A stretch of 45,233 bases of DNA, taken from positions 1-45,233 of the forward strand of contig JAEETF010000024.1 in NCBI GenBank assembly GCA_016290195.1. The letters are read 5' to 3'. The position numbers and the translations under genes were made by a program. Below the pieces are notes generated by a model. The model did not search any database, had not been told where the DNA came from, and worked only from the letters and a program-made list of their open reading frames with translations. Each line of letters opens with the position of its first letter. Positions within the stretch are counted from its first letter, which is position 1. The DNA comes from Bacilli bacterium. Lineage in GTDB: Bacteria > Bacillota_I > Bacilli_A > RF39 > UBA660. Positions 10,515-45,233 of the stretch are shown here, in pieces.

Positions 10515-10538
10515 GAATGATTTAATCATTCTTTTTTT
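10513..10538. terminator. Bidirectional rho-independent terminator (typA / ddl)
   Basis: AAGAATGA / TTTAA loop / TCATTCTT hairpin, T-run on + and A-run upstream (a T-run for the - strand). Confidence 0.65.
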
Positions 10539-11487
10539 ATGCATTATTAATTAAAATGGTTATTAAATCTTGATATGTTATTTTATTGTTTTCTATTAAC
10601 TTAGGAAACATACTAATTTCTGTAAAACCGGGAATAGTATTTATTTCATTTATATATAAAGTATTGTTTTCTAAAAAGAAATCTATTCTAGCATAATTTT
10701 TTAGATTCATTTCTATAAATAATAGTTTAGCTATTTTTTTAATTTCATTTTTTATTTCTTTATTTATATTAGCTGGTATTTGAAGTTTAGATTCTTTTTG
10801 ATATTTAGCTTCATAATCGTAAAAATTATTGCATGATACTATTTCTCCTATATCAGATATAATTAATTTATTTTTCTTTTTTAAAACTGCTACTTCAAGT
10901 TCTCTAGTATTTATAAATTTTTCAATAATAATTTTTTTATCATATTTAAATGCTTCTTTTACTGCTTTTTTTAATTCTTTTTTATTATTTGCTTTATTAA
11001 TTCCTATTGAAGAACCACCATTTGCTGGTTTAATTATTACTGGAAATTTCTTTATTTTTTTAATTTCTTTCATGTTTTTAATTGTTATAAATGGTACTTG
11101 ATTAATATTTAGATGTTTAAAAAATATTTTAGCTAATTCTTTATCAAAACATAATACACTTGCATCTGTTTTAGAACCAACATATTTAATATTAAATAAA
11201 TCAAATAATCCTTCTAGTTTACCATCTTCTCCATTATTCCCATGCGTAATAGGAAATGCTACATCATACTCTTTTAAAAATTCTATAATGTTATCTATTT
11301 TTATATCATTATTTCTATCATTTAAATTGGTATTATTAGTAACAAACCATTCATTTTGCTTATTAATAAATACTGGAGTAACATCAAATAAGAATAGATT
11401 AATATTATCATATATAGATTGAGCAGATTTAATAGAAATATTATGTTCTGTAGAGTTACCTCCGAATATAAGTAATACTTTTTTCAT
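10537..11487 (-). CDS. ddl: D-alanine--D-alanine ligase
   Basis: MKKVLLIFGGNSTEHNISIKSA, ATP-grasp layout, PVIIKPANGGSSIGI, EINTIPGFTEISMFP. Start is the ATG at 11487 (4 codons inside the track ORF) behind GAGGTG. Confidence 0.9.
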   Translation of the reverse strand: MKKVLLIFGGNSTEHNISIKSAQSIYDNINLFLFDVTPVFINKQNEWFVTNNTNLNDRNNDIKIDNIIEFLKEYDVAFPITHGNNGEDGKLEGLFDLFNIKYVGSKTDASVLCFDKELAKIFFKHLNINQVPFITIKNMKEIKKIKKFPVIIKPANGGSSIGINKANNKKELKKAVKEAFKYDKKIIIEKFINTRELEVAVLKKKNKLIISDIGEIVSCNNFYDYEAKYQKESKLQIPANINKEIKNEIKKIAKLLFIEMNLKNYARIDFFLENNTLYINEINTIPGFTEISMFPKLIENNKITYQDLITILINNA

Positions 11488-11648
11488 AAAACACCTCATT
11501 TATATATATGTAAATATATGTAAAAGGGTGTTGAATTTAGATTTAAAAATATGATATATTTATAATGGTTTAATCATATTTTGTTACTTTCCTTTTTCTT
11601 AGAAAGAATAAATTATCTTAAATCAAATAAGAAGAAGGAGGTAAATAC

Positions 11649-11816: not shown

Positions 11817-11838
11817 AATCATCATTTGATGATTTTTT
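11817..11838. terminator. Bidirectional hairpin between the zinc-ribbon gene and cotJC
   Basis: AATCATC / ATTT loop / GATGATT followed by a T-run; sits between convergent stops. Confidence 0.55.
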
Positions 11839-12409
11839 ATTTTAATTCCCCATTTTCTTTTTTCTTTAAATAATAATCTCTTAATTCTTTAAATCTTTGA
11901 TAATGAATAATTTCTCTTTGCCTTAAAAATGCAAGTGGAGCTAAGACATCTGGATCATCAGTTAAATCCATTAAATGTTCGTAAGTAGCTCTAGCTCTTT
12001 GTTCTGCTCCCATATCACTTTCAATATTAGCAATACAATCACCAGCTACTTTGATATATGTCATATTAAATGGATTACCAAATGCATCCGCAGGAAATAA
12101 ATCTTTACCAAATTGTGCATAATTAGAACCAAGTCCTGCTTTTTCCATTTCTTCTATAGTAGCATCCTTAGTAAGTTGATAAAGCATTGCTGAAATCATT
12201 TCTACGTGGCCAAGTTCTTCTGTTCCTATATCGGTAAGAAGAGCTTTACCTTTTTCATCTGGCATACAATATCTTTGATCTAAATATTGCCATGCGGCAG
12301 CAAGTTCGCCAGCAGGTCCACCATATTGAGTCATTATATATTTAGCTAGTTTTAAATCTTTTTTAGTTATGTTAATGGGAAAAGCTAATTTTTTTTCATA
12401 TTTCCACAT
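11837..12409 (-). CDS. cotJC: Spore coat protein CotJC (manganese-catalase-like ferritin fold)
   Basis: MWKYEKKLAFPINI...YGGPAGELAAAWQYLDQRY...EELGHVEMI...REIIHYQRF. 190 aa from the ATG at 12409 behind GGAGGAC (reverse complement of 12414-12420). The track ORF start is an upstream extension. Confidence 0.85.
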   Translation of the reverse strand: MWKYEKKLAFPINITKKDLKLAKYIMTQYGGPAGELAAAWQYLDQRYCMPDEKGKALLTDIGTEELGHVEMISAMLYQLTKDATIEEMEKAGLGSNYAQFGKDLFPADAFGNPFNMTYIKVAGDCIANIESDMGAEQRARATYEHLMDLTDDPDVLAPLAFLRQREIIHYQRFKELRDYYLKKKENGELK

Positions 12410-12419
12410 AATAGTCCTC

Positions 12420-12818
12420 CTATTTATTTTCCCAAGGCCATGGATTTTTAATCCATTCCCATTCATTATTTTTATTAACAGCATTATCTATACAAATTGG
12501 TCCATAATTCTTTTCATAATTTTTTAATGCTTCTTCTTTTTCTTCTTCATATTGTTTAAATAGATTAGCTATTTCTTTATTATTAGGAAAAATGTCTAAA
12601 TAAAGATTTAAGTCATTAATAGCAAAACAAAGAGCATTTATATATGTTAAGTCTTCAGCTTGTTTATTCATTGGTACTATTTCAAATGGCTTATTTATTT
12701 TATAAGTATTATAAAGATCAGGAAACATGTTTCCTCTGATATATCCAGCATATGAATCAAATAAATTAGTTATATCATTTTGTATAAAATCACATTTATT
12801 GAAATTATAATTATTCAT
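12420..12818 (-). CDS. CotJB-like spore coat protein with a CotJA-like N-terminal extension (apparent fusion)
   Basis: C-terminal part LNLYLDIFPNNKEIANLF...WEWIKNPWPWE fits CotJB. N-terminal GYIRGNMFPDLYNTYK fits the CotJA G-T-x-FP-x-L motif. AGGAGG RBS (reverse complement of 12825-12830). Immediately upstream of cotJC. Confidence 0.6.
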   Translation of the reverse strand: MNNYNFNKCDFIQNDITNLFDSYAGYIRGNMFPDLYNTYKINKPFEIVPMNKQAEDLTYINALCFAINDLNLYLDIFPNNKEIANLFKQYEEEKEEALKNYEKNYGPICIDNAVNKNNEWEWIKNPWPWENK

Positions 12819-31848: not shown

Positions 31849-32391
31849 ATGTCTATAGAGGATATTAAGGGGACTCTAGAAAACAATGGTAGTATAAGTG
31901 ATGAACTTAAAGATAACATTGTAGCATTAGTAGAAATATTTTCAAATAATTTTCCTAATGTTTCGCTAGAGAAGTTGAATAATAATTTAAAAACTTTAAA
32001 AATTAAACGTGTAAGTAAATATGTTACAAATGAAGTTGCATACTATAGTGGAGCATCAAATACGTTATATATAAATTATAGTAAAATAACTGATGATGAT
32101 GATGTTAGACATATTATTATGCACCAATTATTACATATAATTACCTACAATGGTCGTTATTCAGGCTTTAATGAAAATAATTTTTTTAGAGCATTAAATG
32201 AAGGATTTACAGAAATAATTACAAATAATATTGTTGGTAATGAAGGCGATAAGACATATTTTGATGATGAAGTAGTTGCTACTAACTTACTTTCAAGTAT
32301 TGTTGGTGTAGATGTAATGGAGAGATGCTACTTCAATAATGATGCACAGGGATTAATGCAAGAGTTAATCAATGTTGGGGGCGAAATTTAA
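31849..32391 (+). CDS. Hypothetical protein with a degenerate zincin-like motif (HQLLH ... NEGF)
   Basis: 180 aa. IIMHQLLHII (His codons 32122-32124 and 32134-32136) and ALNEGFTE (Glu 32200-32202, 22 aa after the second His). This resembles a gluzincin HExxH...E layout with the catalytic Glu replaced by Gln. Confidence 0.4.
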   Translation: MSIEDIKGTLENNGSISDELKDNIVALVEIFSNNFPNVSLEKLNNNLKTLKIKRVSKYVTNEVAYYSGASNTLYINYSKITDDDDVRHIIMHQLLHIITYNGRYSGFNENNFFRALNEGFTEIITNNIVGNEGDKTYFDDEVVATNLLSSIVGVDVMERCYFNNDAQGLMQELINVGGEI

Positions 32392-32702
32392 TGAATATTA
32401 AAAAAGTAATGGATAAAATGAATTATAATTATGGAAATCCAAATGGGAAAAGTGATTTAGGTGATATTCAGAATATGATGACAGAATGGTTTTATGAAAA
32501 TCTAACTAAATCATCTTTAAGTATGGAAGCTTCTAAAACTATGATGGATAATTTTGAAGCCAATATATTTGATAATCCAGATATGTTTGATTCAAGCATT
32601 GATTATAGTAGTATTAGAGGTTGTAAACACTTTTTTAATGAAAAGAAAGCTAATTATGGTATGTATTTAAATGAACAAAATGAAAATAAAATGAGACTAT
32701 AA
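32391..32702 (+). CDS. Hypothetical protein, translationally coupled to 31849-32391
   Basis: TAATG overlap at 32389-32393. 103 aa, no motif recognised. Confidence 0.5.
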   Translation: MNIKKVMDKMNYNYGNPNGKSDLGDIQNMMTEWFYENLTKSSLSMEASKTMMDNFEANIFDNPDMFDSSIDYSSIRGCKHFFNEKKANYGMYLNEQNENKMRL

Positions 32703-32723
32703 ATTAAAATTTATAGTTTTTTT
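32696..32723 (+). terminator. Rho-independent terminator
   Basis: ACTATAAAT / TAAA loop / ATTTATAGT perfect 9-bp stem, then T6-7. Confidence 0.6.
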
Positions 32724-32768
32724 GTAGGATTTTTTAAATTTATTTGGAATAATATACTTAGTACGCAA

Positions 32769-32797
32769 TTGATAAAAATTAAAAATATACGTATAAT
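32769..32797 (+). promoter_or_regulatory. Near-consensus sigma-A promoter of the M16 peptidase pair
   Basis: -35 TTGATA (32769-32774), 17-nt spacer, -10 TATAAT (32792-32797). Confidence 0.65.
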
Positions 32798-32814
32798 ATA
32801 GTCAGGTGATTTAT

Positions 32815-34086
32815 ATGAAATATAATAAATATGAAATGAATTCTTATAATTTGCACGTAATTAATACAGATAGATTTAAAGTAAATCGTTTAGTAGTACT
32901 TTTTTTAAGGAAGGCTAAAAAAGATGAAATTACTATTCGTAATCTTCTTGGTGATGTTCTTCTTACATCTACTAAAAAATATAATACACTTCGTTTATTA
33001 AATATTAAAACAGAAGAATTATATGGTATGCCATATGGTGGTGGTACTATAAATAGCGGAAAATATTCGGTAATGCGTTTTAGTATGGAATTCTTAAATG
33101 ATAAATATACTTTAGAACCAATATTTGAAGAAGCTATTAATTTTATGATGGATATTATTTTTAATCCAAATGTTACTGATGGAGCATTTGATGAAAAGAC
33201 ATTTGATATATGCAAAACTAATTTAAAAAATTATCTTGAAAGTATACCTGATTATCCAGATAATTATAGTCATATACGTTTGTTAGATGAAATGGATAAA
33301 TCATCACCAATTAGTTATCATAATGCTGGTTATTTAGAAGATTTAGATAGTATTACTCCTCAATCTTTATATAAGTATTATTTAAGTATGTTAAAAAAAG
33401 ATATGGTTGATGTATATTTAATTGGTGATGTTAATGAAAAAGAAGTTAAAAAAATAATAGATAGTAAAATGCTTTTAAATTCAGTAAGAAAAAATATAGG
33501 TAACCATTTAATAAAACATGATTTATTTAGAAATAAGTATAAAACAATTATTGAATCTAAAGATGTAAAACAAAGTAAATTATTAATAGGATTTAAAATT
33601 AAGAATCCTACATTTTATGAACTAAATTATGTTTCAGTAGCATACTCTTATATATTAGGTGGAAGTGCAGATTCATTATTATTTAAAAATGTTAGAGAAA
33701 AGAATTCATTATGTTATTATATCAATTCATCAATAAATAGAATTAAGAGTATTATGGTTATTTCATCAGGAATAAAAAAGAAAGACTTTAAAAAAACGTT
33801 AGAATTAATAAAAAAAGAATTAAAAAATATGTCACTTGGTAAATTTAGTGATAAATATATAGAAAATGGAAAAGAAATGTATTTGAATGCATGTGATGAA
33901 ATGTATGATACTCCAACAGATTTACTTAATACATATATCAATAATAATTATTTGCATACGGGTTTAATAGAAGAAAAGAAAAAAGAAATACTTAAAGTTA
34001 CTAAAGAAGACATAATAAAGTTTTCTAAAAAAATTATTATTGACACAATTTATTTATTAGAAGGAAGTGAACAAGATGATAATTAA
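32815..34086 (+). CDS. M16 (pitrilysin/insulinase) family protein lacking the HxxEH zinc motif (likely non-catalytic partner; YmfF-like)
   Basis: 423 aa from ATG 32815 behind AGGTGA. M16-like length and pairing with the next gene. No HxxEH anywhere in the sequence. Confidence 0.65.
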   Translation: MKYNKYEMNSYNLHVINTDRFKVNRLVVLFLRKAKKDEITIRNLLGDVLLTSTKKYNTLRLLNIKTEELYGMPYGGGTINSGKYSVMRFSMEFLNDKYTLEPIFEEAINFMMDIIFNPNVTDGAFDEKTFDICKTNLKNYLESIPDYPDNYSHIRLLDEMDKSSPISYHNAGYLEDLDSITPQSLYKYYLSMLKKDMVDVYLIGDVNEKEVKKIIDSKMLLNSVRKNIGNHLIKHDLFRNKYKTIIESKDVKQSKLLIGFKIKNPTFYELNYVSVAYSYILGGSADSLLFKNVREKNSLCYYINSSINRIKSIMVISSGIKKKDFKKTLELIKKELKNMSLGKFSDKYIENGKEMYLNACDEMYDTPTDLLNTYINNNYLHTGLIEEKKKEILKVTKEDIIKFSKKIIIDTIYLLEGSEQDDN

Positions 34087-35368
34087 AAAACTGGATTATC
34101 TAGATGTAGATGTTTATGAAGAAAAACTGGATAATGGATTATTATTATATATTGTTCCTATTCAAAATCGAAATAATATATATGTTACTTTAACAACTAA
34201 ATTTGGTTCTAATGTTTTAGAATTTATTCCTTTAAATGAAGATAAGATGGTTAAAGTACCAGCTGGTGTTGCTCACTTTCTAGAACATAAGGTTTTTGAA
34301 CAAAAAGATGGTATTGATCCATTTACATATTTTTCAGAAAGAGGAGCAAATGCAAATGCTAATACATCTCAACATAAAACAACTTATTTATTTTCAGGAC
34401 ATAGTAATATAGAAGATAATATAAACTTTTTATTAGATTATGTTGGTGAACCTTATTTTACTGATGAAAATGTAGAAAAAGAAAAAGGAATTATTATTTC
34501 AGAATGTGAAATGTATAAAGATAAATCATATCATAGATGTTATGAAAAAATGCTTGAAAATACTTTTCAAATTGATCCAGTGCGTATACCTGTAATTGGG
34601 ACAGTAGAAAGCATTAAGTCTATTACTAAAGAAGATTTATATACTTGCTACAATACATTCTATCATCCAGCTAATATGTTTATGGTAGTTACTGGTAATG
34701 TAGATCCAAAGCATATTATTAGTGTAGTAAAAGAAAATCAAAAAAATAAGAAATACATTGATTTTAAACCAGTTACTATTAAAAAATATGATGAACCTAA
34801 AACTGTATTAAAACAAAAAGATAGTTTTAATATGGATATAACAATTCCAAAAATTATGATTGGTTATAAAATAGCTTTTAAAGATTTTAATATGGATTTA
34901 AGAACTTTAAAAGATAATTTGATTATGATATTTGAATTAAACTTTGGAGAAACATCATTACTTAATGAAAGATTGGTTAATCAAAAAATAGTTAATGGTG
35001 GTATTGGCTATGATAATGTTTCAACGGATGATTATATGTTAATAACATTAAGTGCTGAATGTATGGATTGTAATTTATTTGAAAAAGAAATTGAAAAACA
35101 AATTAATAATTTAACAGTATCTGAAGAAGAATTTATGAGAAAGAAAAAATCTGCTATAGGAAATATAGTCGCACTAAGTAATGATGTATATTTAATGAAT
35201 AATAAAATAGTAAATAATGTAATTAAATATAATGAAGTAAAATATGATGATTATGAATATATTAAGAATTCGAGTTTTAAAGATTTAGAATATGTCTTAA
35301 ATAATCTTAATTTAGAAAATAAAAGTATATGTATAGTAAATCCAAAGAAACTTGCAAATAAGAAATAA
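34076..35368 (+). CDS. M16 family zinc peptidase (catalytic subunit; YmfH-like)
   Basis: Inverted zincin motif AHFLEHKVFE near the N-terminus. 430 aa from ATG 34076 (alternative GTG 34067). Overlaps the upstream partner. Confidence 0.8.
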   Translation: MIIKKLDYLDVDVYEEKLDNGLLLYIVPIQNRNNIYVTLTTKFGSNVLEFIPLNEDKMVKVPAGVAHFLEHKVFEQKDGIDPFTYFSERGANANANTSQHKTTYLFSGHSNIEDNINFLLDYVGEPYFTDENVEKEKGIIISECEMYKDKSYHRCYEKMLENTFQIDPVRIPVIGTVESIKSITKEDLYTCYNTFYHPANMFMVVTGNVDPKHIISVVKENQKNKKYIDFKPVTIKKYDEPKTVLKQKDSFNMDITIPKIMIGYKIAFKDFNMDLRTLKDNLIMIFELNFGETSLLNERLVNQKIVNGGIGYDNVSTDDYMLITLSAECMDCNLFEKEIEKQINNLTVSEEEFMRKKKSAIGNIVALSNDVYLMNNKIVNNVIKYNEVKYDDYEYIKNSSFKDLEYVLNNLNLENKSICIVNPKKLANKK

Positions 35369-35404
35369 ATATGTTATACTATAGGATAGTTAAGGAGGGC
35401 ATCT

Positions 35405-35617
35405 ATGAAGGTAGCTTTATTAATTATTAGTTTATTATTAATTGCTATTGTTTTACTACAAAGTGGTAAAGCAGAAGGAGCATCTAGTATTATTTCAGGT
35501 GGAAATTTAAATTTATTTGCTCAAAGAAAAGAACGTGGTGGAGAATTATTTATTAGTAGATTAACTTTAGCACTTGGTCTTGCATTTTTAACACTTAGTT
35601 TTATATTAGGATTTTAA
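35405..35617 (+). CDS. secG: Preprotein translocase subunit SecG
   Basis: 70 aa, two hydrophobic spans, LLQSGKAEGASSIISGG signature. AAGGAGGG RBS. Confidence 0.8.
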   Translation: MKVALLIISLLLIAIVLLQSGKAEGASSIISGGNLNLFAQRKERGGELFISRLTLALGLAFLTLSFILGF

Positions 35618-35618
35618 T

Positions 35619-35640
35619 AAAGGCTCTATGCCTTTTTTCT
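35619..35640 (+). terminator. Rho-independent terminator
   Basis: AAAGGC / TCTAT loop / GCCTTT followed by a T-run. Confidence 0.65.
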
Positions 35641-35712
35641 TTACAAAGATTTACAATATGAATATTGACAAAATAGAATTATTAATCTAAATTAATGATA
35701 GGAGGGAATACT

Positions 35713-35898
35713 TTGGAATTTGATGATAATTCTTTAAAAGAAGAAAATATTAGGAAAGAAGTGGTATTGTTAAGAGAAAAATTAATTAATAGTAATGATC
35801 CAGTAGAAATAGATGCTATTAAAGCTAGAGTATTAATGTTAAAACTTTTGCTTAGTAATCTAAAAAATAATAAAATTGAAAGCAAAAAAATATCTTGA
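35713..35898 (+). CDS. Small helical hypothetical protein
   Basis: Track ORF 35695-35898. TTG 35713 lies 6 nt after AGGAGGG (35700-35706), which makes it the better start (61 aa). TTGACA at 35665-35670 upstream. Confidence 0.4.
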   Translation: MEFDDNSLKEENIRKEVVLLREKLINSNDPVEIDAIKARVLMLKLLLSNLKNNKIESKKIS

Positions 35899-35901
35899 AT
35901 T

Positions 35902-35924
35902 AAGAACTTTTAGTTCTTTTTTTG
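35902..35924 (+). terminator. Rho-independent terminator
   Basis: AAGAAC / TTTTA loop / GTTCTT followed by a T-run. Confidence 0.55.
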
Positions 35925-35969
35925 TTTGTATAATTAGTTTAATTATTATATAATTAAAAGGGTGGTATA

Positions 35970-36728
35970 ATGAAAGCTTTAATAACTGGAGCAACTAGTG
36001 GTATTGGAGAAGCACTTGCAAATGTTTTATATGATATGGGTAGTAATCTTATACTAGTTGGACGTAATAAAGAAAAATTAGAAGAATTAAAAAACAAATT
36101 TGGTCGTAAAGCTAAAGTTGTTGATATAGATTTATCTAGTACATATAATTGTATGGAATTATATGAAATTTGTAAAAATGAAAAATTAGACGTTGTTATT
36201 AATAATGCTGGTTTTGGTGATTGTGGTTATTTTACAGAGACTAATTTAAATAAAGAATTGGATATGATTAATGTAAATGTTAAAGCTGTTCATGTACTTA
36301 CTAAATTATTTTTAAAAGATTTTGTTAAACATAATAGAGGTTTTATACTTAATGTGGCTTCTATTGCAGCCTTTGCACCTGGACCACTTATGGCAACATA
36401 TTATTCTACTAAAACATATGTTGTTAGTCTTACAAAACAAATTAATGAAGAATTAAAAAAAGAAAATAGTAATGTTTATGTAGGATGTTTATGTCCAGGA
36501 CCTGTGGATACTAATTTTAATAATGTAGCAGGAGTTATTTTTAATGCTAAGGGATTAACTAAAGAGTATGTTGCTGAATATGCAGTTAAACAAATGTTAA
36601 AGAAAAAAACAATAATAATACCTGGATTTAAAGTAAGATGTGGATATCTAGGTGCTAAATTATTTAGTGATAAAACTGTTTCTAAATTTATATTTAATGG
36701 ACAAAAGAAAAAATTAGGTAATGAATAA
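35970..36728 (+). CDS. Short-chain dehydrogenase/reductase, first gene of the ecf-truA operon
   Basis: TGATSGIGEA, NNAG, YYSTK catalytic Tyr/Lys. Its stop overlaps the ecfA1 ATG (TAATG at 36726-36730). Confidence 0.85.
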   Translation: MKALITGATSGIGEALANVLYDMGSNLILVGRNKEKLEELKNKFGRKAKVVDIDLSSTYNCMELYEICKNEKLDVVINNAGFGDCGYFTETNLNKELDMINVNVKAVHVLTKLFLKDFVKHNRGFILNVASIAAFAPGPLMATYYSTKTYVVSLTKQINEELKKENSNVYVGCLCPGPVDTNFNNVAGVIFNAKGLTKEYVAEYAVKQMLKKKTIIIPGFKVRCGYLGAKLFSDKTVSKFIFNGQKKKLGNE

Positions 36729-37531
36729 TGTCTTCTATTATTAAAATAAATGATTTATCATTTTCTTATGAAGATAAAAAAATATTTAAAAAATTAAATT
36801 TAGAAATAGAACAAAATAGATGGCTTACAGTAGTGGGTGCTAATGGTAGTGGTAAAAGTACTTTAGTAAGCTTAATTCTAGGACTAAAAGAATATGAGGG
36901 ACAAATATTAGTAGAAGATTTTGATGTTTTAAAAAGCAAAAAATTGATTCGTAAAAAAATAGGTGTAGTATTTGATGATCCTGATAATCAAATAATACAT
37001 GATATGGTTGATGATGAACTTTCTTTTATACTTCAAAATATGGGATTATCTATATCAGAAATAAATCAAAAAAAAGAAGAAATAGTAAATGCTTTAGGAA
37101 TTAAAAAAATATTAAAATTAAAACCTAGTGATTTATCTGGTGGTGAAAAATGTTTAGCTGTTTTAGCTGCATCTTTAGTTAAAAATCCAGATATAATTAT
37201 TTTAGATGAGGCACTTGAAATGCTTGATAATTTACAAAAAAATAAAGTAATTAAATTATTGAAAAATAGATTAAAAGCAGGTGCTACAATTATTAATATT
37301 ACTCAAGATATTGAAGATAGTTTAATTGGTGATGATATATTATTAATGGATAATGGTAAAGTAATACTTTATGATACAAAAGAATCATTTTTCAATCATG
37401 ATGAAGAAATTAAAAAGTATAATCTTGAATTACCTTTTATAGTAGATCTATCTATAAAATTAGAATATTATGGATTAACTAATAAAATATATCTTGATAT
37501 GGAAGAGTTGGTGAATGAAATATGGAAATAA
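36728..37531 (+). CDS. ecfA1: ECF transporter ATPase component A1
   Basis: Walker A GANGSGKST, signature LSGGEK, Walker B IIILDEA. Conserved position upstream of ecfA2-ecfT-truA. Confidence 0.85.
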   Translation: MSSIIKINDLSFSYEDKKIFKKLNLEIEQNRWLTVVGANGSGKSTLVSLILGLKEYEGQILVEDFDVLKSKKLIRKKIGVVFDDPDNQIIHDMVDDELSFILQNMGLSISEINQKKEEIVNALGIKKILKLKPSDLSGGEKCLAVLAASLVKNPDIIILDEALEMLDNLQKNKVIKLLKNRLKAGATIINITQDIEDSLIGDDILLMDNGKVILYDTKESFFNHDEEIKKYNLELPFIVDLSIKLEYYGLTNKIYLDMEELVNEIWK

Positions 37532-38358
37532 TATTTGATAATATTAAGTTCACTTATGAAGGTTCTAATGAAGAAACTATTAAAGGTTTATCAGCTCATT
37601 TAAAAAAGAATAGTATAAATGCTATAATTGGTGAAAATGGTAGTGGTAAAACTACTTTAATTCAAACAATAAATGGATTAATTATACCTGATATTGGTGA
37701 AATAAGAATAGATGATTTTAGAGTAAAAAAAGGTATTAAAGATTATAAAGATTTAAGATTTAATGTTGGTATGGTATTTCAACTTCCAGAGGAACAAATA
37801 TTTAATTTAACTGTAGAAGATGAAATTGGTTATACTCTTGATTATTATAATTATCGTCAAGATGAAAAAGAAAAACATATTTTAGATGCCTTAAAAATGG
37901 TAGGATTAAATAAAGATTATTTATCAAAAAATCCTCTTTCTTTAAGTCAAGGAGAAAAAAGGAAAGTAGCTATTGCAACTGTACTTGCTTTTAATCCTAA
38001 AGTTATAATTTTTGATGAACCAACTATTGGTCTAGATTATAAAACAAAAGAAAATTTAATTAAAATAATTAGATTACTTAAAAATAGATTTCATAAAACA
38101 ATAATTATAGTATCACATGATGTAGATTTAGTTCATAAATTATCTGATTATATATGTATATTATCGAATGGTAAAATTGTAAAAAGTGGTAGTAAGTATG
38201 AAATATTTACAGATTCTAACTTATTAAAAAAGTATCATATTAAAGTTCCAAAAATAATTGAATTTGAAAAATTAGTACTTGAAAAGAAAAAAATAAAACT
38301 AGGATATCGTGATGATATTAATGATTTATTAAAGGATATATATAGGAATGCTAAATAA
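37522..38358 (+). CDS. ecfA2: ECF transporter ATPase component A2
   Basis: GENGSGKTT, LSQGEKRKVAIA, IIFDEPT. Overlaps both neighbours. Confidence 0.85.
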   Translation: MEIIFDNIKFTYEGSNEETIKGLSAHLKKNSINAIIGENGSGKTTLIQTINGLIIPDIGEIRIDDFRVKKGIKDYKDLRFNVGMVFQLPEEQIFNLTVEDEIGYTLDYYNYRQDEKEKHILDALKMVGLNKDYLSKNPLSLSQGEKRKVAIATVLAFNPKVIIFDEPTIGLDYKTKENLIKIIRLLKNRFHKTIIIVSHDVDLVHKLSDYICILSNGKIVKSGSKYEIFTDSNLLKKYHIKVPKIIEFEKLVLEKKKIKLGYRDDINDLLKDIYRNAK

Positions 38359-39088
38359 TATAACTTTTGGAAAATATTATGATACAAAATCTAGATTACA
38401 TGATATGCATATAGTAATAAAAATAATTTGTTTATTTGTTATATTGATTTTTACTTATATTTATAGAAATTATCAAAGTTTGCTATTTATTCTAATATTT
38501 AATATACTAAGTATGTTTATGAGTAATGTACCTATTAAATATTATTTAAAAAGTATTTGGATTATGAAAATGCTAATACTTTTTATAGTTATCATAAACT
38601 TAATATTTGGTGGAGAAATAATAGTTAATGTTTTACAAATATTAATTGTAGTAATTAGTTCATCAATATTTATGTATACATCAAGATATAAAGATATTAT
38701 TTATGGATTAGAAATTGTATTTTATCCATTAAAAATATTTAAAATAAATCCTAAAAAGATAGCTTTTATTCTTTCTTTAACACTTAGATTTATACCAGAT
38801 ATATTTGTTTTAGCAAGGCAAATATTAAAGGCTCAAGCAAGTAGAGGTATAGATTATTATAATGGCAATTTTAAAGATAAAGTTTTTGCACTAAAATGTA
38901 TGCTTATACCTTTAGTTATAGGTTCATTTAGAAAAGCATCACATTTTGCTATAACTTTAGAGTTAAAATCATATAATGAGAATAGTATTACTAGAGAAAA
39001 GAAAAAATTAAAATTTTATGATTTATATTATTTATCACTTAATGTTGTAGTAGCAATATTATTATTTATAAAGGAAGTGCAATTATGA
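38348..39088 (+). CDS. ecfT: ECF transporter transmembrane component T
   Basis: 246 aa, multi-pass. ARQILKAQASRG (the A-R-G coupling-helix type motif of EcfT/CbiQ). Operon position. Confidence 0.8.
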   Translation: MLNNITFGKYYDTKSRLHDMHIVIKIICLFVILIFTYIYRNYQSLLFILIFNILSMFMSNVPIKYYLKSIWIMKMLILFIVIINLIFGGEIIVNVLQILIVVISSSIFMYTSRYKDIIYGLEIVFYPLKIFKINPKKIAFILSLTLRFIPDIFVLARQILKAQASRGIDYYNGNFKDKVFALKCMLIPLVIGSFRKASHFAITLELKSYNENSITREKKKLKFYDLYYLSLNVVVAILLFIKEVQL

Positions 39089-39825
39089 GATATTTTATGT
39101 ATTTTTCTTATGATGGTTCAAAATTTAGTGGTTATCAAAAACAACCAAGTAAGAAAACAATTCAGGGAGAACTTGAAAAGGCTTTAAAGAAAATTAATTC
39201 AAATAAAACAGTAAGTGTACATGCATCAGGTAGAACTGATGCAGGAGTTCATGCTTTAAATCAAGCTGCTCATTTTGATCTTGATAAAGAAATGGTACCT
39301 TCTAAATTAATGTGTTCATTAAATAGTTTGTTACCTGAAAGTATTTATATTAAAAGTATTGAAAAAGTTAATGATGATTTTCATGCTCGCTTTAATGTAA
39401 AAGCTAAAGAATATATTTATAAAATAAATATGGGAGAATATAATCCTATTGAAAGAGATTATGTTTTTCAATATAATAAAAGACTAGATGTTGTGGAAAT
39501 GGAAAGAGCTATGAAATATTTAGAAGGAGAACATGATTTTAAATCATTTACAAAAGCGGAAGAAGAATATGATAGTACAATAAGAACTATAGTTCAAACT
39601 AAAGTAATACGTGATGTAAGAAATGTTAATTTAGTTGTTTTAAGTTTTTTAGGAACTGGTTTTTTAAGATATATGGTTCGTAATATAGTAGGTGTTTTAA
39701 TTGAAATAGGCGAAGGCAAAAGAAAAAGTGAAGATATAATTAAAATACTTAATGCTCAAGATAGAACTGCGGCAGGTAAAACAGCTAATCCGGAAGGATT
39801 ATATTTAAAGGAAGTATTATATTAA
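39085..39825 (+). CDS. truA: tRNA pseudouridine(38-40) synthase TruA
   Basis: YDGSKFSGYQKQP...SGRTDAGVHALNQAAHFD...GFLRYMVRNIVG. Confidence 0.93.
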   Translation: MRYFMYFSYDGSKFSGYQKQPSKKTIQGELEKALKKINSNKTVSVHASGRTDAGVHALNQAAHFDLDKEMVPSKLMCSLNSLLPESIYIKSIEKVNDDFHARFNVKAKEYIYKINMGEYNPIERDYVFQYNKRLDVVEMERAMKYLEGEHDFKSFTKAEEEYDSTIRTIVQTKVIRDVRNVNLVVLSFLGTGFLRYMVRNIVGVLIEIGEGKRKSEDIIKILNAQDRTAAGKTANPEGLYLKEVLY

Positions 39826-39826
39826 A

Positions 39827-40444
39827 ATGCAATCAGAAAAAATTAAATTAGCTAGTGCATTTGCTAGTATTAAACATCAAAATCAAACTAGAAAAAATGG
39901 TTCTCCATATATTAATCACCCTATTAGGGTTGCTGATAAAGTATCAAGTTATACTGAAAAAAATGAAACATTAATTATAAGTGCAGTTTTACATGATACA
40001 CTTGAAGACACAGATACTACATATGAAGAAATTATAAAAACATTTGGACAAGAAATTGGGAATATAGTATTAGAACTTACTAATGATGATGAAGAAAAAC
40101 AAAAAAATGGTAAAGAAAAATATTTATCAAAAAAATTAGTAAAAATGAGTGATGATTCTCTTACAATTAAATTATGCGATAGATTAGATAATGTAATGGA
40201 TTTAGTAAATAGTAATGATTCTAAATTTATGGATAAATATATTAATGAGACAATTAATGTATTAAATTATTTAATAGCTAATAGAGAATTACAAGATACA
40301 CATATGAAAATAATTACTGATATTAGTTTGGAATTAGGATTATTAACTAAAGATAATGAAGAATACTTGAATAAAACATTAGATTTAATGGCAAAGTTAA
40401 ATATTCAAGTAAAAACACTTGAAAAAAAGTTAAAAGTGTGGTAA
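39827..40444 (+). CDS. Stand-alone HD-domain protein of the RelA/SpoT hydrolase type (small alarmone hydrolase-like)
   Basis: HPIRVA...LHDTLEDT...LELTND...KLCDRLDN pattern of the (p)ppGpp-hydrolase HD domain. 205 aa with no synthetase domain. Starts 1 nt after the truA stop. Confidence 0.65.
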   Translation: MQSEKIKLASAFASIKHQNQTRKNGSPYINHPIRVADKVSSYTEKNETLIISAVLHDTLEDTDTTYEEIIKTFGQEIGNIVLELTNDDEEKQKNGKEKYLSKKLVKMSDDSLTIKLCDRLDNVMDLVNSNDSKFMDKYINETINVLNYLIANRELQDTHMKIITDISLELGLLTKDNEEYLNKTLDLMAKLNIQVKTLEKKLKVW

Positions 40445-40529
40445 TATACCAGTAATGAGAGAGATCTCAGAAGTGAGAATGCAAGCATTTAATGGTTAAT
40501 GGTTAAGTGTGTACATTCGGGAATCGATG

Positions 40530-40558
40530 CTTCTAGCTAAAAAGCTAGAAGTTTTTTT
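40530..40558 (+). terminator. Strong rho-independent terminator of the ecf-truA-HD operon
   Basis: CTTCTAGCT / AAAA loop / AGCTAGAAG perfect 9-bp stem plus T7. Confidence 0.85.
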
Positions 40559-40588
40559 GTAAAATAAGAAGAAAAAGGTATATTTTTA

Positions 40589-40617
40589 TTGACTTTTTGA
40601 ATAAAATTTAGTAATAT
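40589..40617 (+). promoter_or_regulatory. Sigma-A promoter of rplM-rpsI
   Basis: -35 TTGACT (40589-40594), 17-nt spacer, -10 TAATAT (40612-40617). Confidence 0.6.
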
Positions 40618-40696
40618 TTTATTTGGTACATTTATATCCCATTATTAGTAAGGCCTGGGAAACTTTACTAAGAAATAATTAGAAAGGGAATGTTTT
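40618..40696 (+). promoter_or_regulatory. rplM 5' leader (candidate L13-type ribosomal protein leader)
   Basis: About 80-nt untranslated leader between the promoter and the rplM ATG. Firmicute rplM genes commonly carry a structured L13 leader; the structure was not verified here. Confidence 0.3.
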
Positions 40697-41131
40697 ATGA
40701 AAAACACATTTATGCAAAAAAAAGAAGAGATTAAACGTGAATGGTATGTTATTGACGCTGAAGGTCAAACATTAGGACGTGTTGCTGCTAAAGTTGCTCA
40801 TGTACTACGTGGTAAACATAGACCAACGTTTACACCTCATGTAGATTGTGGAGATTTTGTTATTGTTACTAATGCTTCTAAGGTTATTTTAACTGGTAAC
40901 AAATTAGATGACAAAATGTATTACAATCATAGCGGTTATCCAGGAGGATTACGCGAAAGAACTGCACGTACAATGAAAGAAGATTATCCAGTTGAAATGA
41001 TGGAAAGAGCTGTTAAGGGAATGCTTCCAAAAGGACGTTTAGGACGTCAAATGTATAGAAAGTTATTTGTTTATGCTGGTGCTGAACATCCACATGCTGC
41101 TCAACAACCAGTAGAAATGAAATTAAATTAG
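40697..41131 (+). CDS. rplM: 50S ribosomal protein L13
   Basis: [38 protein letters not shown]. Confidence 0.97.
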
Positions 41132-41141
41132 GAGGGTTTAA

Positions 41142-41558
41142 ATGGCTAATAAGAGAATTTTTATTGGAACAGGACGTAGAAAATCATCTGTTGCTCAAGT
41201 TAAAATGGTTCCTGGAAAAGGAAAAATAACTATCAACGGTGTTGACGTTAATGAATATTTTCCATATGAAACAAATGTTATGGATTTAAAGCAACCATTA
41301 GTTGCTACTGCTACTGAAGAAACTTTTGATATTGAAGCAAAAGTAAATGGTGGTGGATTTAGTGGTCAAGCAGGTGCTGTTAGACTTGGTATTACGAGAG
41401 CACTTCTTGAATATGATGCTCCTAATGCTGAAAGTGAAGATAACTTCCGTAAAAAATTAAAAGTTGCTGGATTTATTACAAGAGATCCACGTGCTAAAGA
41501 ACGTAAGAAACCAGGACTTAAAGCTGCTCGTAGAGCACCACAATTTTCAAAGAGATAA
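41142..41558 (+). CDS. rpsI: 30S ribosomal protein S9
   Basis: [12 protein letters not shown]...[19 protein letters not shown]...[25 protein letters not shown]. Confidence 0.97.
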
Positions 41559-41566
41559 AATCTTTC

Positions 41567-41592
41567 AAAACCCATTTTTATGGGTTTTTTTG
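41567..41592 (+). terminator. Rho-independent terminator of rplM-rpsI
   Basis: AAAACCCA / TTTTTA loop / TGGGTTTT followed by a T-run. Confidence 0.8.
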
Positions 41593-41684
41593 TGTCTATA
41601 AATGACGGGTTATTTTAACAATTTTAAATAAATTTTTCATTAGAAAAAAATAATTAATTTTTTTATTAAATAGTTGGTTTTAAA

Positions 41685-41713
41685 TTTACAAAAACTATTA
41701 ATAGTGATACAAT
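41685..41713 (+). promoter_or_regulatory. Promoter of the lipoprotein / giant-prepilin gene pair
   Basis: -35 TTTACA (41685-41690), 17-nt spacer ending TGA, -10 TACAAT (41708-41713), i.e. an extended -10. Confidence 0.55.
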
Positions 41714-41743
41714 ATATATAATAGAATGATAGGAGGAATAAGA

Positions 41744-42148: not shown

Positions 42149-42163
42149 AATTAGGTGATGTTC

Positions 42164-45100
42164 ATGAAAAAAAGAAAAGGATTTACTTTAATTGAGTTAT
42201 TAGCAGTTATTGTAATTCTTGCCGTTATTGCACTTATTGCAGTACCTACAATTATGCAAGTAATAATCGGTGCGAAAAGAAATACTGCAATTATTAGTGC
42301 AGAAGGATATATTGAGGCAGTTCAAAGAAAAGTAACAATTTCAACAATGATAGAAAATAATGATTATGATGACAGAGAATATGCTTACGATGAAATAGAT
42401 GTTGAAGTAGATGGTATGATACCAACTGCGGGTACTTATGAATTGTCAGATGGCAAAGTAGCAAACGCTGTACTTTGCGTTAATGGATATACAGTAACAT
42501 ATCAGAATAATGAAACTACTGCTGGCGGAGAGTGTGATCTAGACAGCATGAAGCTTGCTTCAACATTAAAAGTTTCAAAAAATTCTGTTTTTTTGGCATA
42601 TCCAAATATGGAATTACTTGAAATTGTTGAAAACAAAAGTGATGGAGAAGTAACATGCGTGTCTAGTAATGAAGATGTTGCAATTTGTGAAATAGCAGAA
42701 AACAATATAGTGATAAAATCAGGACCGGTAGAAGGACAAGCAACAATAACATTAACTTCTCATGGAAATAATAAATATAAAGATGCAAATGCATCAATTT
42801 TAGTGTCAACAGCAAAAGGCTTATTGAATGTAACAGCAAATGGCTATAGTGGTATATATGATGGAAAGGCACATGGAATCAGTGTGATTTCTAGTGGTGC
42901 AAACATAATATATGGAACAACAAATGAAATATATGATTTAGGTTCAAGTCCAATGTATGTTGATGCAGGTACATATACTGTATATTATCAAATAACAAAA
43001 GCAGGATATAATACAGTAACAGGAAGTAAAACAGTAACAATAACAAAAGCTCAAGGAAATTTGGAATTGGAATCAACTAGTGGAACAATTACCTATGGTG
43101 AACAAAAAACAATCAATGTTACATCAACTGGCTTATTGACTGCAAAAGTTTCTGATACAAATATTGCTAGTGCTGAAATTGTTAATGGAAAACTTGTTGT
43201 AACAGGCTTAAATGTTGGCTCAACTTATGTAACAGTAACAAGTACAGAGTCAACCAATTATACTGAGATAAGTGCAACATATGATATTAATGTTGTGAAA
43301 GCAAATAATGTACTAGTACTATCAAGTAATGTTGGTAGTGTTACGTATCCTAACAGCATTTCATTTGATATTACACAAAATACAAGTGGTGGAGCACTAT
43401 CATGTACATCAAGTAATACAGCAGCAGCAACATGTAGTATTAGTGGCACAACGGTAACAGTAACAGCAGGAACGACAGCAGCAAGTAGTGTCACAATAAC
43501 AGTAACAAGTGCCGCAACGACTAACTATAAAGCAGTAAGTGCCGCATATTTAGTAACAAGTGAAAATGGAATGATGACTGTAACAGCAAGTGGTTATAGT
43601 GGAGCATATGATGGAAATGCCCATGGAATCAGTGTCTCTTCAAACGGTGCAACAATAAAATATGGCACAGAAGAAGGAATATACGATTTAAACACAAGTC
43701 CAACATATACAAATGTAGGAACATATACTGTATATTATCAAATAACAAAAGCAGGATATAATACAGTAACAGGAAATAAAACAATAACAATAAGCAAAGC
43801 AACAGGAAGTGTAACAGCACCAACAGCTAAAACGCTTTCATATACAGGAAGTGCTCAGGAATTAATAAATGCTGGATCAAGTACAACAGGAACAATACAA
43901 TATAAATTAGAATCAGGAGACTATTCAGAAATTATACCAACAGCGATAAATGATGGAACATATACTGTATACTATAAGGTTGTAGGAGATAGCAATCATT
44001 TAGACGTAGCCGAAGCAAGTATAAGTGTAACAATAAATAAAGCAGAACTTACATATACTGCAACAGGATATACTGGTATATATGATGGAGAAGCTCATGG
44101 AATCAGTGTAGTATCAAACGGAGCTACAATAAAATATGGCACAGAAGAAGGAGTATACAACTTAAATACAAGTCCAACATATGCAAATGCAGGGACATAT
44201 ACTGTATATTATCAAATTATGAAATTGGGCTACACAGTAATAACTGACAGTCAAACTGTGGTAATAAGTAAGGCAGCAGGAAGTGTAATAGCCCCAACAG
44301 CAAAGACACTTTCATATACAGGAAATGCTCAAGCATTAGTTAATGCTGGATCAAGTCCAACAGGAACAATACAATATAAAGTTGGTAATGGAAATTATTC
44401 AACAAGTATACCAACAGCAACAAATGATGGAACATATACTGTATATTATAAGGTTGTAGGAGATAGTAATCATAATGATGTAGCTGAAAATAGTATAAAT
44501 GTAACAATAAATAAAGCAACCCTTCCATATACAGCAAATGATTATACTGGAGTATATGATGGAGAAGCCCATGGAATTAGTGTTGTATCGAGCGGTGCAA
44601 CAATAAAATATGGAACAACGAGTGGAACCTATAATTTTTCTTCAAATCCAACATATACAGATGTAGGAGTACATACTGTATATTTCCAAATAACAAAAGC
44701 AGGATATAACACAGTAACAGGAAGTAAAACAGTAACAATAACAAAAGCTGATGGTAAAGTATCATTATCATCAAATACCGGAACAGTAACATATCCAAAT
44801 AGTACAACATTTGCTATAACTAAAAATATAAGCGGTGGGACACTATCATGTGCATCAAGTAATACGGCAGCAGCAACATGTAGTATTAGTGGCACAACAG
44901 TAACAGTAACAGCAGGAACAACAGCAGCAAGTAGTGTAACTATAACAGTAACAAGTGCTGCAACAAATAATTATAATAGTGCAAGTGCTGCATATGTAGT
45001 AACAAGTGAAAATGGAGTACTATCTGTAACAACAAACGGTTATAGTGGAGCATATGATGGAAATCCACATGGAATCAGTGTAACATCCAGTGGAGCAACA

Positions 45101-45233
45101 ATAAAATATGGAACGACAAGTGGAATATATAACTTAAATACAAGCCCAACATATACAAATGTAGGAACATATACTGTATACTATAAGGTTGTAGGAGATG
45201 GTAATCATACTGATGTAGCCGAAAAGAGTATAA
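42164..45233 (+). CDS. Giant prepilin-type (class III signal) protein with tandem Ig-like adhesin modules; 3' end outside the window
   Basis: Not in the ORF track because there is no stop in the window. AGGTGA (42153-42158), ATG 42164, in-frame TAG at 42152-42154 upstream, then 1,023 open codons. N-terminus MKKRKG/FTLIELLAVIVILAVIALIAVPTI has Gly-1, Phe+1 and Glu+5. It is followed by eleven 79-87 aa repeat modules. Confidence 0.85.
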   Translation, partial: MKKRKGFTLIELLAVIVILAVIALIAVPTIMQVIIGAKRNTAIISAEGYIEAVQRKVTISTMIENNDYDDREYAYDEIDVEVDGMIPTAGTYELSDGKVANAVLCVNGYTVTYQNNETTAGGECDLDSMKLASTLKVSKNSVFLAYPNMELLEIVENKSDGEVTCVSSNEDVAICEIAENNIVIKSGPVEGQATITLTSHGNNKYKDANASILVSTAKGLLNVTANGYSGIYDGKAHGISVISSGANIIYGTTNEIYDLGSSPMYVDAGTYTVYYQITKAGYNTVTGSKTVTITKAQGNLELESTSGTITYGEQKTINVTSTGLLTAKVSDTNIASAEIVNGKLVVTGLNVGSTYVTVTSTESTNYTEISATYDINVVKANNVLVLSSNVGSVTYPNSISFDITQNTSGGALSCTSSNTAAATCSISGTTVTVTAGTTAASSVTITVTSAATTNYKAVSAAYLVTSENGMMTVTASGYSGAYDGNAHGISVSSNGATIKYGTEEGIYDLNTSPTYTNVGTYTVYYQITKAGYNTVTGNKTITISKATGSVTAPTAKTLSYTGSAQELINAGSSTTGTIQYKLESGDYSEIIPTAINDGTYTVYYKVVGDSNHLDVAEASISVTINKAELTYTATGYTGIYDGEAHGISVVSNGATIKYGTEEGVYNLNTSPTYANAGTYTVYYQIMKLGYTVITDSQTVVISKAAGSVIAPTAKTLSYTGNAQALVNAGSSPTGTIQYKVGNGNYSTSIPTATNDGTYTVYYKVVGDSNHNDVAENSINVTINKATLPYTANDYTGVYDGEAHGISVVSSGATIKYGTTSGTYNFSSNPTYTDVGVHTVYFQITKAGYNTVTGSKTVTITKADGKVSLSSNTGTVTYPNSTTFAITKNISGGTLSCASSNTAAATCSISGTTVTVTAGTTAASSVTITVTSAATNNYNSASAAYVVTSENGVLSVTTNGYSGAYDGNPHGISVTSSGATIKYGTTSGIYNLNTSPTYTNVGTYTVYYKVVGDGNHTDVAEKSI
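42821..45233 (+). repeat. In-frame tandem coding repeats (237-261 nt modules of three types) inside the giant prepilin gene
   Basis: Modules A1 42821-43057, B1 43058-43309, B2 43310-43570, A2 43571-43807, C1 43808-44044, A3 44045-44281, C2 44282-44518, A4 44519-44755, B3 44756-45016, A5 45017-edge. Examples of identity: 55 nt identical at 42971-43025 and 43721-43775; 124 nt with 7 substitutions at 43395-43518 versus 44841-44964. Confidence 0.9.

Follow-up and report, generated by a model that had tools for sequence, protein, structure and literature searches.

A gene for a giant pilin-like protein with a stalk of immunoglobulin-like modules and a lipoprotein partner in a Bacilli bacterium of the RF39 lineage

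Modular pilins, which join a pilin module to domains not specific to type IV pilus biology, are the current explanation of functional diversity in simple type 4 filaments, and only single-domain grafts among them have been studied experimentally. More than 1,200 such proteins have been catalogued in 264 architectures, including an 860-amino acid (aa) protein with 12 repeats (Raynaud et al., 2021; PMC8179133), and PilB of Streptococcus sanguinis exemplifies bulky modular pilins that are polymerised through the pilin module (PMC8179133). Here we analyse a 45,233-nucleotide stretch of DNA, the whole of contig JAEETF010000024.1 (assembly GCA_016290195.1, Bacilli bacterium, RF39; UBA660), which we call the window. 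Its right end holds the 5' part of a genuine gene, whose product is a very large surface protein composed of a pilin head and a rod of immunoglobulin (Ig)-like modules. The protein fits the definition of a modular pilin, and its gene is preceded by that of a small lipoprotein.

Like S. sanguinis PilB and PilC, which carry a vWA and a lectin domain, respectively, the window protein comes from a monoderm and combines a class III signal with Glu5, a small pilin module and non-pilin cargo (PMC8179133; PMC9934059). The cargo of PilB and PilC is adhesive; the window protein is likened to them in sequence and predicted structure. PilB and PilC have one grafted domain, a total mass of about 50 kDa and genes within the pil operon, whereas the window gene encodes at least 11 Ig-like modules (more than 1,023 aa, and 1,660 aa in relatives), is non-operonic, is paired with a lipoprotein gene and varies between strains. 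The 860-aa N_methyl protein of Candidatus Falkowbacteria, with its 12 IPR013211 repeats 'the most extreme case' (PMC8179133), likewise joins a prepilin motif to many tandem repeats, a likeness seen at the level of sequence; it differs in repeat family and phylum, and the family described here is longer. The InterPro-based survey probably missed this family because the cargo is missed at Pfam thresholds, and for the same reason the family is probably absent from domain-based surveys. A further parallel is CofB, a type IVb minor pilin of enterotoxigenic Escherichia coli, in which the pilin module is followed by beta-repeat and beta-sandwich domains and which has its binding function at the filament tip (PMC8179133). 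Unlike the window protein, CofB is trimeric and has two extra domains; its type IVb system is that of a diderm, its gene is part of the cof operon, and no sequence similarity between the two was found.

The frame that begins with ATG 42164 contains not a single stop over 1,023 codons up to base 45233. The window being the whole contig, the stop codon, the tip domain and the downstream genes lie beyond that base. An in-frame TAG (42152-42154) is found just 5' of the ATG, together with a Shine-Dalgarno sequence (Table 1). A further in-frame ATG at 42158 (MFMKKRKG...), two codons 5' of 42164, overlaps this ribosome-binding site, which makes 42164 the better start. The N-terminus, MKKRKG followed by FTLIELLAVIVILAVIALIAVP, consists of a basic leader ending in Gly, a Phe at +1, a Glu at +5 and a hydrophobic stretch of about 20 residues. 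Over residues 1-26 the score with PF07963 N_methyl is 33.9 bits (E=2e-8, cutoff 21.2), and that with TIGR02532 is 31.2 bits (cutoff 16.3). With both models above their cutoffs, the protein carries a class III, type IV pilin signal, and this is the one prepilin motif in all six frames of the window. Thus, an initial annotation of this DNA, which had pointed out the start codon, the AGGTGA, the upstream TAG, the frame open to the window end and the prepilin signal, is borne out on each of these features. Chance can be excluded, since a 3-kb open frame in AT-rich DNA is combined with at least 515 homologues at E<=1e-5. Five residues, namely G6, T8, L9, E11 (Glu+5) and P28 (mature Pro22), do not vary across 20 diverse homologues. 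Type IV pilus subunits that pack into a filament are expected to conserve Glu5 and Pro22 strictly.

Table 1. Positions of the pilin gene, its modules and the associated upstream features in the window
Feature	Position	Strand	Remarks
Terminator-like hairpin and T-run	41567..41588	+	just after rpsI stop (41558); left edge of variable cassette
Promoter-like site TTTACA, 17-nt spacer, TG, TACAAT	41685..41713	+	consensus match 10/12
Partner lipoprotein gene, 134 aa	41744..42148	+	lipobox LTGC, N/K/E-rich linker, conserved beta-rich ~85-aa domain
Shine-Dalgarno AGGTGA	42153..42158	+	5 nt before pilin ATG
Giant modular type IV pilin gene, 5' part	42164..45233	+	1,023 codons, open at contig end
Leader peptide MKKRKG	42164..42181	+	predicted prepilin peptidase cleavage after Gly6
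Pilin module, mature residues F7-T134	42182..42565	+	alpha1 helix, 4-stranded antiparallel sheet (predicted), Cys pair C105/C124
Module A1, residues 135-219	42566..42820	+	Ig-like, Big_2-like sandwich with Cys pair
Module Y1, residues 220-298	42821..43057	+	YxGxYDGxxHGI type, MBG_3-like below threshold
Module B1, residues 299-382	43058..43309	+	Big_2 / T2SS-T3SS_pil_N-like, below threshold
Module A2, residues 383-469	43310..43570	+	80% identical to A3
Modules Y2 and T1, residues 470-628	43571..44047	+	two tandem Ig-like sandwiches (AlphaFold2)
Modules Y3, T2 and Y4, residues 629-864	44048..44755	+	T1/T2 80% identical
Module A3, residues 865-951	44756..45016	+	self-comparison
Module Y5, residues 952-1023	45017..45233	+	cut by contig end; Y/T hybrid

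An AlphaFold2 model of residues 1-225, built on 20 homologues, has a pLDDT of 90.7. It predicts a helix of 54 residues (9-62), an antiparallel sheet of four strands (89-123) and, C-terminal to these, an Ig-like sandwich, and the junction between the head and module A1 is modelled with high confidence. In this prediction the head has pilin topology, that is a long alpha1 helix packed on an antiparallel sheet, so that the pilin-like head of about 130 aa proposed initially takes the shape of a predicted pilin fold over residues 1-134. A Foldseek search with the model of head and A1 returned Ig-domain matches only, dominated by the attached Ig module, and the call of a pilin fold therefore rests on secondary-structure topology. 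When a profile of the head was compared with PDB sequences, filament-forming pilins came out best, first PilE1 (8pfb, E=3.8e-8), the major pilin of S. sanguinis, and next MshA, PilA and GspG; these matches run over alpha1, as is usual for pilins. The head Cys pair C105/C124 is invariant in the 20 homologues. Moreover, a sensitive search with residues 30-219, which yielded 259 clusters at 50% identity, revealed stand-alone pilins of the head type that measure 125-169 aa, one of which (P0426) is essentially the head without cargo.

Self-comparison divides the protein into the head (residues 1-134) and the series A1-Y1-B1-A2-Y2-T1-Y3-T2-Y4-A3-Y5, with modules of 78-87 aa and Y5 cut short. This gives eleven modules, where at least eleven had been counted before. 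Besides the two closely related pairs listed in Table 1 (A2/A3 and T1/T2), the Y modules share 62-70% identity, and Y and T modules about 35%; Tandem Repeats Finder reports a 474-nt tandem period that corresponds to one Y+T unit. When modules are scanned singly, a Y module aligns end to end with MBG_3 (PF18887; E=4e-4, 20.8 bits, cutoff 25; 3-78 on 2-72 of 72) and A1 aligns with Big_2 (PF02368; E=1.3e-3, 19.1 bits, cutoff 22.8). The initial annotation, which spoke of Big_2-like modules and of YxGxYDG modules of adhesin type, was thus reasonable as far as the resemblance goes, but both matches stay below the Pfam thresholds. Some homologues pass the Big_2 threshold (P0054, 50.2 bits), and the Cys pair of the A modules is invariant across 20 homologues.

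AlphaFold2 predicts the Y2-T1 pair as all-beta, with two beta-sandwiches (pLDDT 97.4), and Foldseek matches this Y-T model to GhpA stalk fragments, protocadherins, the binding region of SraP (PDB 4m00, TMq 0.60) and titin Z1Z2. The modelled likeness to adhesin and stalk proteins suggests an adhesin role for the stalk. At about 4 nm per Ig-like domain, 11 modules would give a stalk of about 40-50 nm. SraP and other sortase-anchored Gram-positive stalk adhesins, such as SasG and Rib, share the tandem Ig-like rod, which in them presents a binding domain, and their module number varies between strains, as it varies among the window homologues. Their polarity is inverted, however: proteins of the SraP type carry the Sec signal and the tip at the N-terminus and are anchored to the wall through LPXTG at the other end, whereas here the pilin is N-terminal and the variable tip C-terminal. 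The A1 region was matched by Foldseek to the Ig domains of the S-layer protein Sap and of lambda gpV. We rejected the reading as an S-layer protein, the Sap matches being generic Ig folds, and that as a phage tail fibre in view of the chromosomal housekeeping context and the prepilin signal at the N-terminus. Finally, Y5 begins as a Y module, and its final 17 residues are like those with which a T module ends (KVVGDGNHTDVAEKSI). It looks from its sequence like a Y/T recombinant precisely at the end of the assembly, and since the hybrid sits where the assembly stops, the repeat count may be unreliable.

We then surveyed the at least 515 homologues, taking counts for the N-terminus and the tip from the best 120. 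The same prepilin N-terminus is present in 95 of these 120, and sizes range from 570 to 1,660 aa. The few homologues with a source name are listed as 'hypothetical protein', apart from one 'prepilin-type N-terminal cleavage/methylation domain-containing protein'. The closest protein match, P0001, is 65% identical, and scans of genome and metagenome collections found nothing nearer than 48-49% identity. Hidden Markov models (HMMs) made from the window modules reveal a common base H-A-Y-(B/A)-A-Y that is followed by 0-8 more T, Y, A or B modules, the module number across homologues being 5 to 13. Complete homologues end in a variable C-terminal region of 200-450 aa outside the module HMMs, which is missing from the short proteins P0061 and P0066. 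A shared domain with the signature '...YW.S...G[IL]RP[VI]I', which has no confident library name, ends about one third of the top 120 homologues. We dropped the label 'lectin-like' for the homologue C-terminal tips, for which one of five gave only a DUF6273 match at E=0.004. In the 18 full-length C-termini that were inspected, neither an LPXTG motif nor a C-terminal transmembrane (TM) segment was found. The stalk modules also occur behind other N-termini, namely GITLIALV... helices without Glu5 (P0386, P0076) and ordinary signal peptides (P0458). Several genomes have two or more paralogues. Members of the family are common among uncultured gut Bacilli with small genomes, the hosts being humans, ruminants, rabbits and chickens. 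N_methyl proteins with an ALK/LTK glycine-rich domain (PF12810, 7.7e-39) also recur in the clade (L189 16960-18513; L001 1-904; L238 5895-7979).

The lipoprotein gene directly upstream of the pilin gene was overlooked in the initial annotation. It ends 15 nt before the pilin ATG and has an alternative start at 41726. In an alignment of 26 sequences its domain of about 85 aa has a mean column identity of 59% and an invariant Cys17. The family is small, with 178 homologues and proteins of 125-157 aa, and neither a Pfam domain nor a name was found among them; matches to NCBIfam and to PDB profiles are confined to the signal and lipobox region. The window's own lipoprotein, searched under either start, is not on record. 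In every relative with readable flanks a lipoprotein homologue adjoins an N_methyl gene of the H-A-Y type, either upstream (L001/2, L007, L008) or downstream of it (L003, L005, L237 with a 36-nt gap, L238 with a 22-nt gap). The neighbour in L238 has the H-A-Y base with ALK_LTK_GRD as cargo, so the partnership follows the head or base and not the tip. Moreover, nine lipoprotein matches lie on contigs equal in size to those with giant pilins, including contigs of 3,099 and 5,437 bp. Judged by gene order, lipoprotein and giant pilin are a two-gene cassette. On consensus matches the pair looks like its own transcription unit, with the promoter-like and terminator-like elements of Table 1, but promoter-like sites are no more frequent in the region than in shuffled sequence, which makes the site at 41685..41713 weak evidence.

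The cassette is strain-variable. Two strains with identical RpsI (L029/L030) are 98% identical to window positions 37544-41558; the identity ends at the rpsI stop, and HD and iPGM genes follow in place of the lipoprotein-pilin cassette. The divergence thus sets in directly after truA-HD-rplM-rpsI, and each strain type carries a terminator hairpin of its own there. On the right, the variable segment extends past the end of the window. The rpsI junction of the window recurs at 99.6%, up to position 41674, in a 934-nt contig from another sample (L032). Elsewhere, the window encodes CotJB and CotJC/Mn-catalase (11837-12818, minus strand) and ddl (10537-11499), from which we infer a walled and probably spore-forming organism. 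Its relatives have genomes of about 1.2 Mb and go under the label 'Tenericutes' in public records, which contrasts with the CotJB, CotJC and ddl genes of the window.

A DNA pattern for the prepilin helix, run on the genome collection, retrieved at least 120 eight-kb tiles (L035-L154). They hold about 190 prepilin open reading frames (ORFs) of 110 to more than 890 aa, almost none of which adjoins assembly genes, and nearly all come from metagenome-assembled genomes (MAGs) of small gut 'Bacilli/Tenericutes/Mollicutes'. Some of the ORFs are pilins of 120-165 aa in tandem arrays, and at least six loci occur in MAG MGYG-HGUT-02248. L127 (CALVKO010000004.1) encodes a different prepilin protein of 893 aa, and its tile 32001-40000 lacks a long blastn match to the window. 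The exception among the tiles is L153, where typA is followed by a T2SSF platform gene (6.6e-49), an A24 peptidase gene (2.4e-33) and then directly by two modular pilins. With the T2SSF of L153 as query we found 191 relatives and kept the best 80 loci. An A24-motif ORF adjoins T2SSF in 77 of the 80, within the region shown, and an ORF with the motifs of a GspE/PilB-type ATPase (Walker A and Asp box) is present in 23 of the 80, within retrieved flanks of up to 10 kb. The A24 peptidase is confirmed by Pfam in L189, L153 and L155. The machinery of the clade scores higher as GspE/PilB and GspF/PilC than as ComGA/ComGB, all scores being below the equivalog cutoffs. PilM/N/O or a retraction ATPase was not noticed around the T2SSF loci. 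T2SSF itself sits in a conserved typA-yqfQ-T2SSF-A24-lspA neighbourhood, and its N-terminus carries an unusual extra 250-330 aa, first TM-rich and then with a K/E-rich, coiled-coil-like segment (L153 1499-3451; L189 8888-11071; L155 10001-11908).

Two MAGs that contain a giant pilin also encode parts of such a machinery. CANSFI01 has T2SSF (1.3e-49), A24 (8.6e-33) and T2SSE (4.9e-126) as well as two more N_methyl proteins, and SVAG01 has T2SSF with an adjoining A24-motif ORF (L225). The initial annotation had named the absence of any prepilin peptidase or filament machinery as what would speak against a pilin; both are found in these two relatives, the peptidase of SVAG01 as an ORF with the A24 motif.

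With odds that we put only slightly above even, we read the window protein as an extreme modular type IV pilin that is borne on a filament and acts as a surface adhesin. The precursor would be inserted into the membrane, where an A24 peptidase would cut off MKKRKG and methylate Phe1. A PilB/PilC-type machine encoded elsewhere in the genome would then add the pilin module to a type 4 filament or a short pseudopilus, which may be built of small pilins whose alpha1 helix is almost the same, with the giant protein as a rare or tip subunit. The Ig-like stalk would hold the variable C-terminal binding domain away from the cell, and the lipoprotein would probably act at the membrane as a binding partner or chaperone of the pilin head. 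We favour this filament-borne reading because Glu5 and Pro22 are invariant, the head is complete, pilins with the same head stand alone, and the platform, in one genome with the ATPase, is retained. Several points weigh against it. A tblastn search of the 45-kb window with T2SSF, A24 and T2SSE of a relative gave no significant match, the best (E=0.043) being the Walker A site of an ECF ATPase, and Pfam showed housekeeping genes in 20 other window ORFs. The lack of pil and comG genes upstream, noted in the initial annotation, agrees with tblastn, Pfam and the six-frame motif scan. Likewise, in relatives the 10 kb on either side of the giant genes held no type 4 filament gene, and at every locus of the family that was examined the gene lies outside pilus operons. 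A stalk of about 45 nm is needless if a pilus provides the reach, and would better suit a protein that stands on the membrane. The repeat number may be mis-assembled, as the contig ends within the repeats, and the 3' end of the pilin gene, hence the tip domain, is outside the window. As for the missing neighbours, at least two relatives encode machinery elsewhere, and the lack of pil or com genes nearby is therefore no evidence against dependence on a type 4 filament.

A protein that stands on the membrane is the premise of the alternative that deserves most attention, although we consider it rather doubtful. Both this anchor and the filament-borne pilin were already among the readings of the initial annotation. 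Here the class III signal would serve export, processing and retention, the alpha1N helix, perhaps with the lipoprotein, would hold the protein, and the stalk would span the wall without a filament. The Sulfolobus sugar-binding proteins of the archaeal 'bindosome' offer a model, as they carry class III signals on non-filament proteins and are encoded away from assembly genes. They serve as a model for this anchoring alternative only, being archaeal, with solute-binding cargo and no Ig-like stalk. The scattered genes, never within pilus operons, would agree with an anchor, and so would the many prepilin-type ORFs of all sizes, including the six or more loci in one MAG, the dedicated membrane lipoprotein, and a stalk that is probably long enough to cross a Gram-positive wall unaided. 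The same modules, moreover, are found behind anchors without Glu5 or behind ordinary signal peptides. Yet invariant Glu5 and Pro22 and a complete globular head would be costly for a mere anchor, the same head type also forms small stand-alone pilins, and the same genomes retain the platform and, in one case, the assembly ATPase. More tentatively still, and on balance unlikely, the prepilin pathway as a whole could be a general surface-display system of these gut Bacilli with genomes of about 1.2 Mb, in which scattered class III proteins of 110 to more than 1,600 aa would share one A24 peptidase and one minimal PilB/PilC machine, and the giant H-A-Y members, with the lipoprotein as co-anchor, would be seated on the membrane or a very short pseudopilus.

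Two further explanations are very improbable. Reduced-genome Erysipelotrichales retain comG operons (PMC12786226), which would allow the protein to be an accessory subunit of a competence (Com) pseudopilus, serving mainly DNA uptake and not adhesion. It does match Com models weakly at its N-terminus, but the N-terminal helix alone aligns and the scores (ComGC 26.5 bits against a cutoff of 75, ComGE 21.8 against 49, ComGD 14.2 against 70) are low; the machinery of the clade, as described above, is nearer to the Gsp/Pil type, and a stalk of Ig-like modules with a variable tip is what adhesins typically have and gives no sign of DNA binding. An artefact (a chimera assembled across repeats) or a decaying gene (a pseudogene within a variable island), in which head and repeats would not make up a single functional protein, is just as hard to credit. 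Besides the contig end within the repeats and the absence of the cassette from strains that are 98% identical in the flank, decay is seen in relatives. A DDE transposase (insertion sequence) just upstream of P0001 (L001 8299-10000) removed the leader and the start codon, and ahead of the annotated start one can still read the prepilin helix (AFSLIELLAIIVILAIIA...) in frame. In L008 (13383-14976) a second prepilin gene downstream of the giant pilin P0054 is split into a 126-aa N-terminal and a 287-aa C-terminal piece, the latter with the same tip domain as P0054, and from its sequence looks like a frameshifted paralogue. For the window gene itself, however, dozens of full-length homologues, each assembled independently, show the same head-A-Y-B-A-Y order, the frame is free of stops in AT-rich DNA, the head/A1 junction is modelled confidently, and the rpsI junction recurs in another sample.

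The novelty implied by the initial annotation was overstated, in that modular pilins are already catalogued (PMC8179133) and the family is abundant in gut metagenomes, though uncharacterised. Our literature search found no paper on this pilin family or on a prepilin expansion in RF39/RFN20-like Bacilli. The family extends the modular-pilin concept rather than being a new kind of system, and it is set apart by its size, its unrecognised repeat cargo, its location outside operons, its dedicated lipoprotein and its strain variability. It pushes modular pilins to subunits of 130-180 kDa with 5-13 Ig-like modules. Whether a PilB/PilC-type machine extracts and polymerises such a giant subunit, or the pilin helix serves as a membrane anchor, becomes a testable question, and the conserved lipoprotein partner offers experiments on it a new, specific handle. 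If the general-display reading were true, it would amount to a route for anchoring giant adhesins that is undescribed in bacteria and functionally parallel to sortase and LPXTG. The family may bear on how uncultured small-genome gut Bacilli attach to their hosts or to particles.

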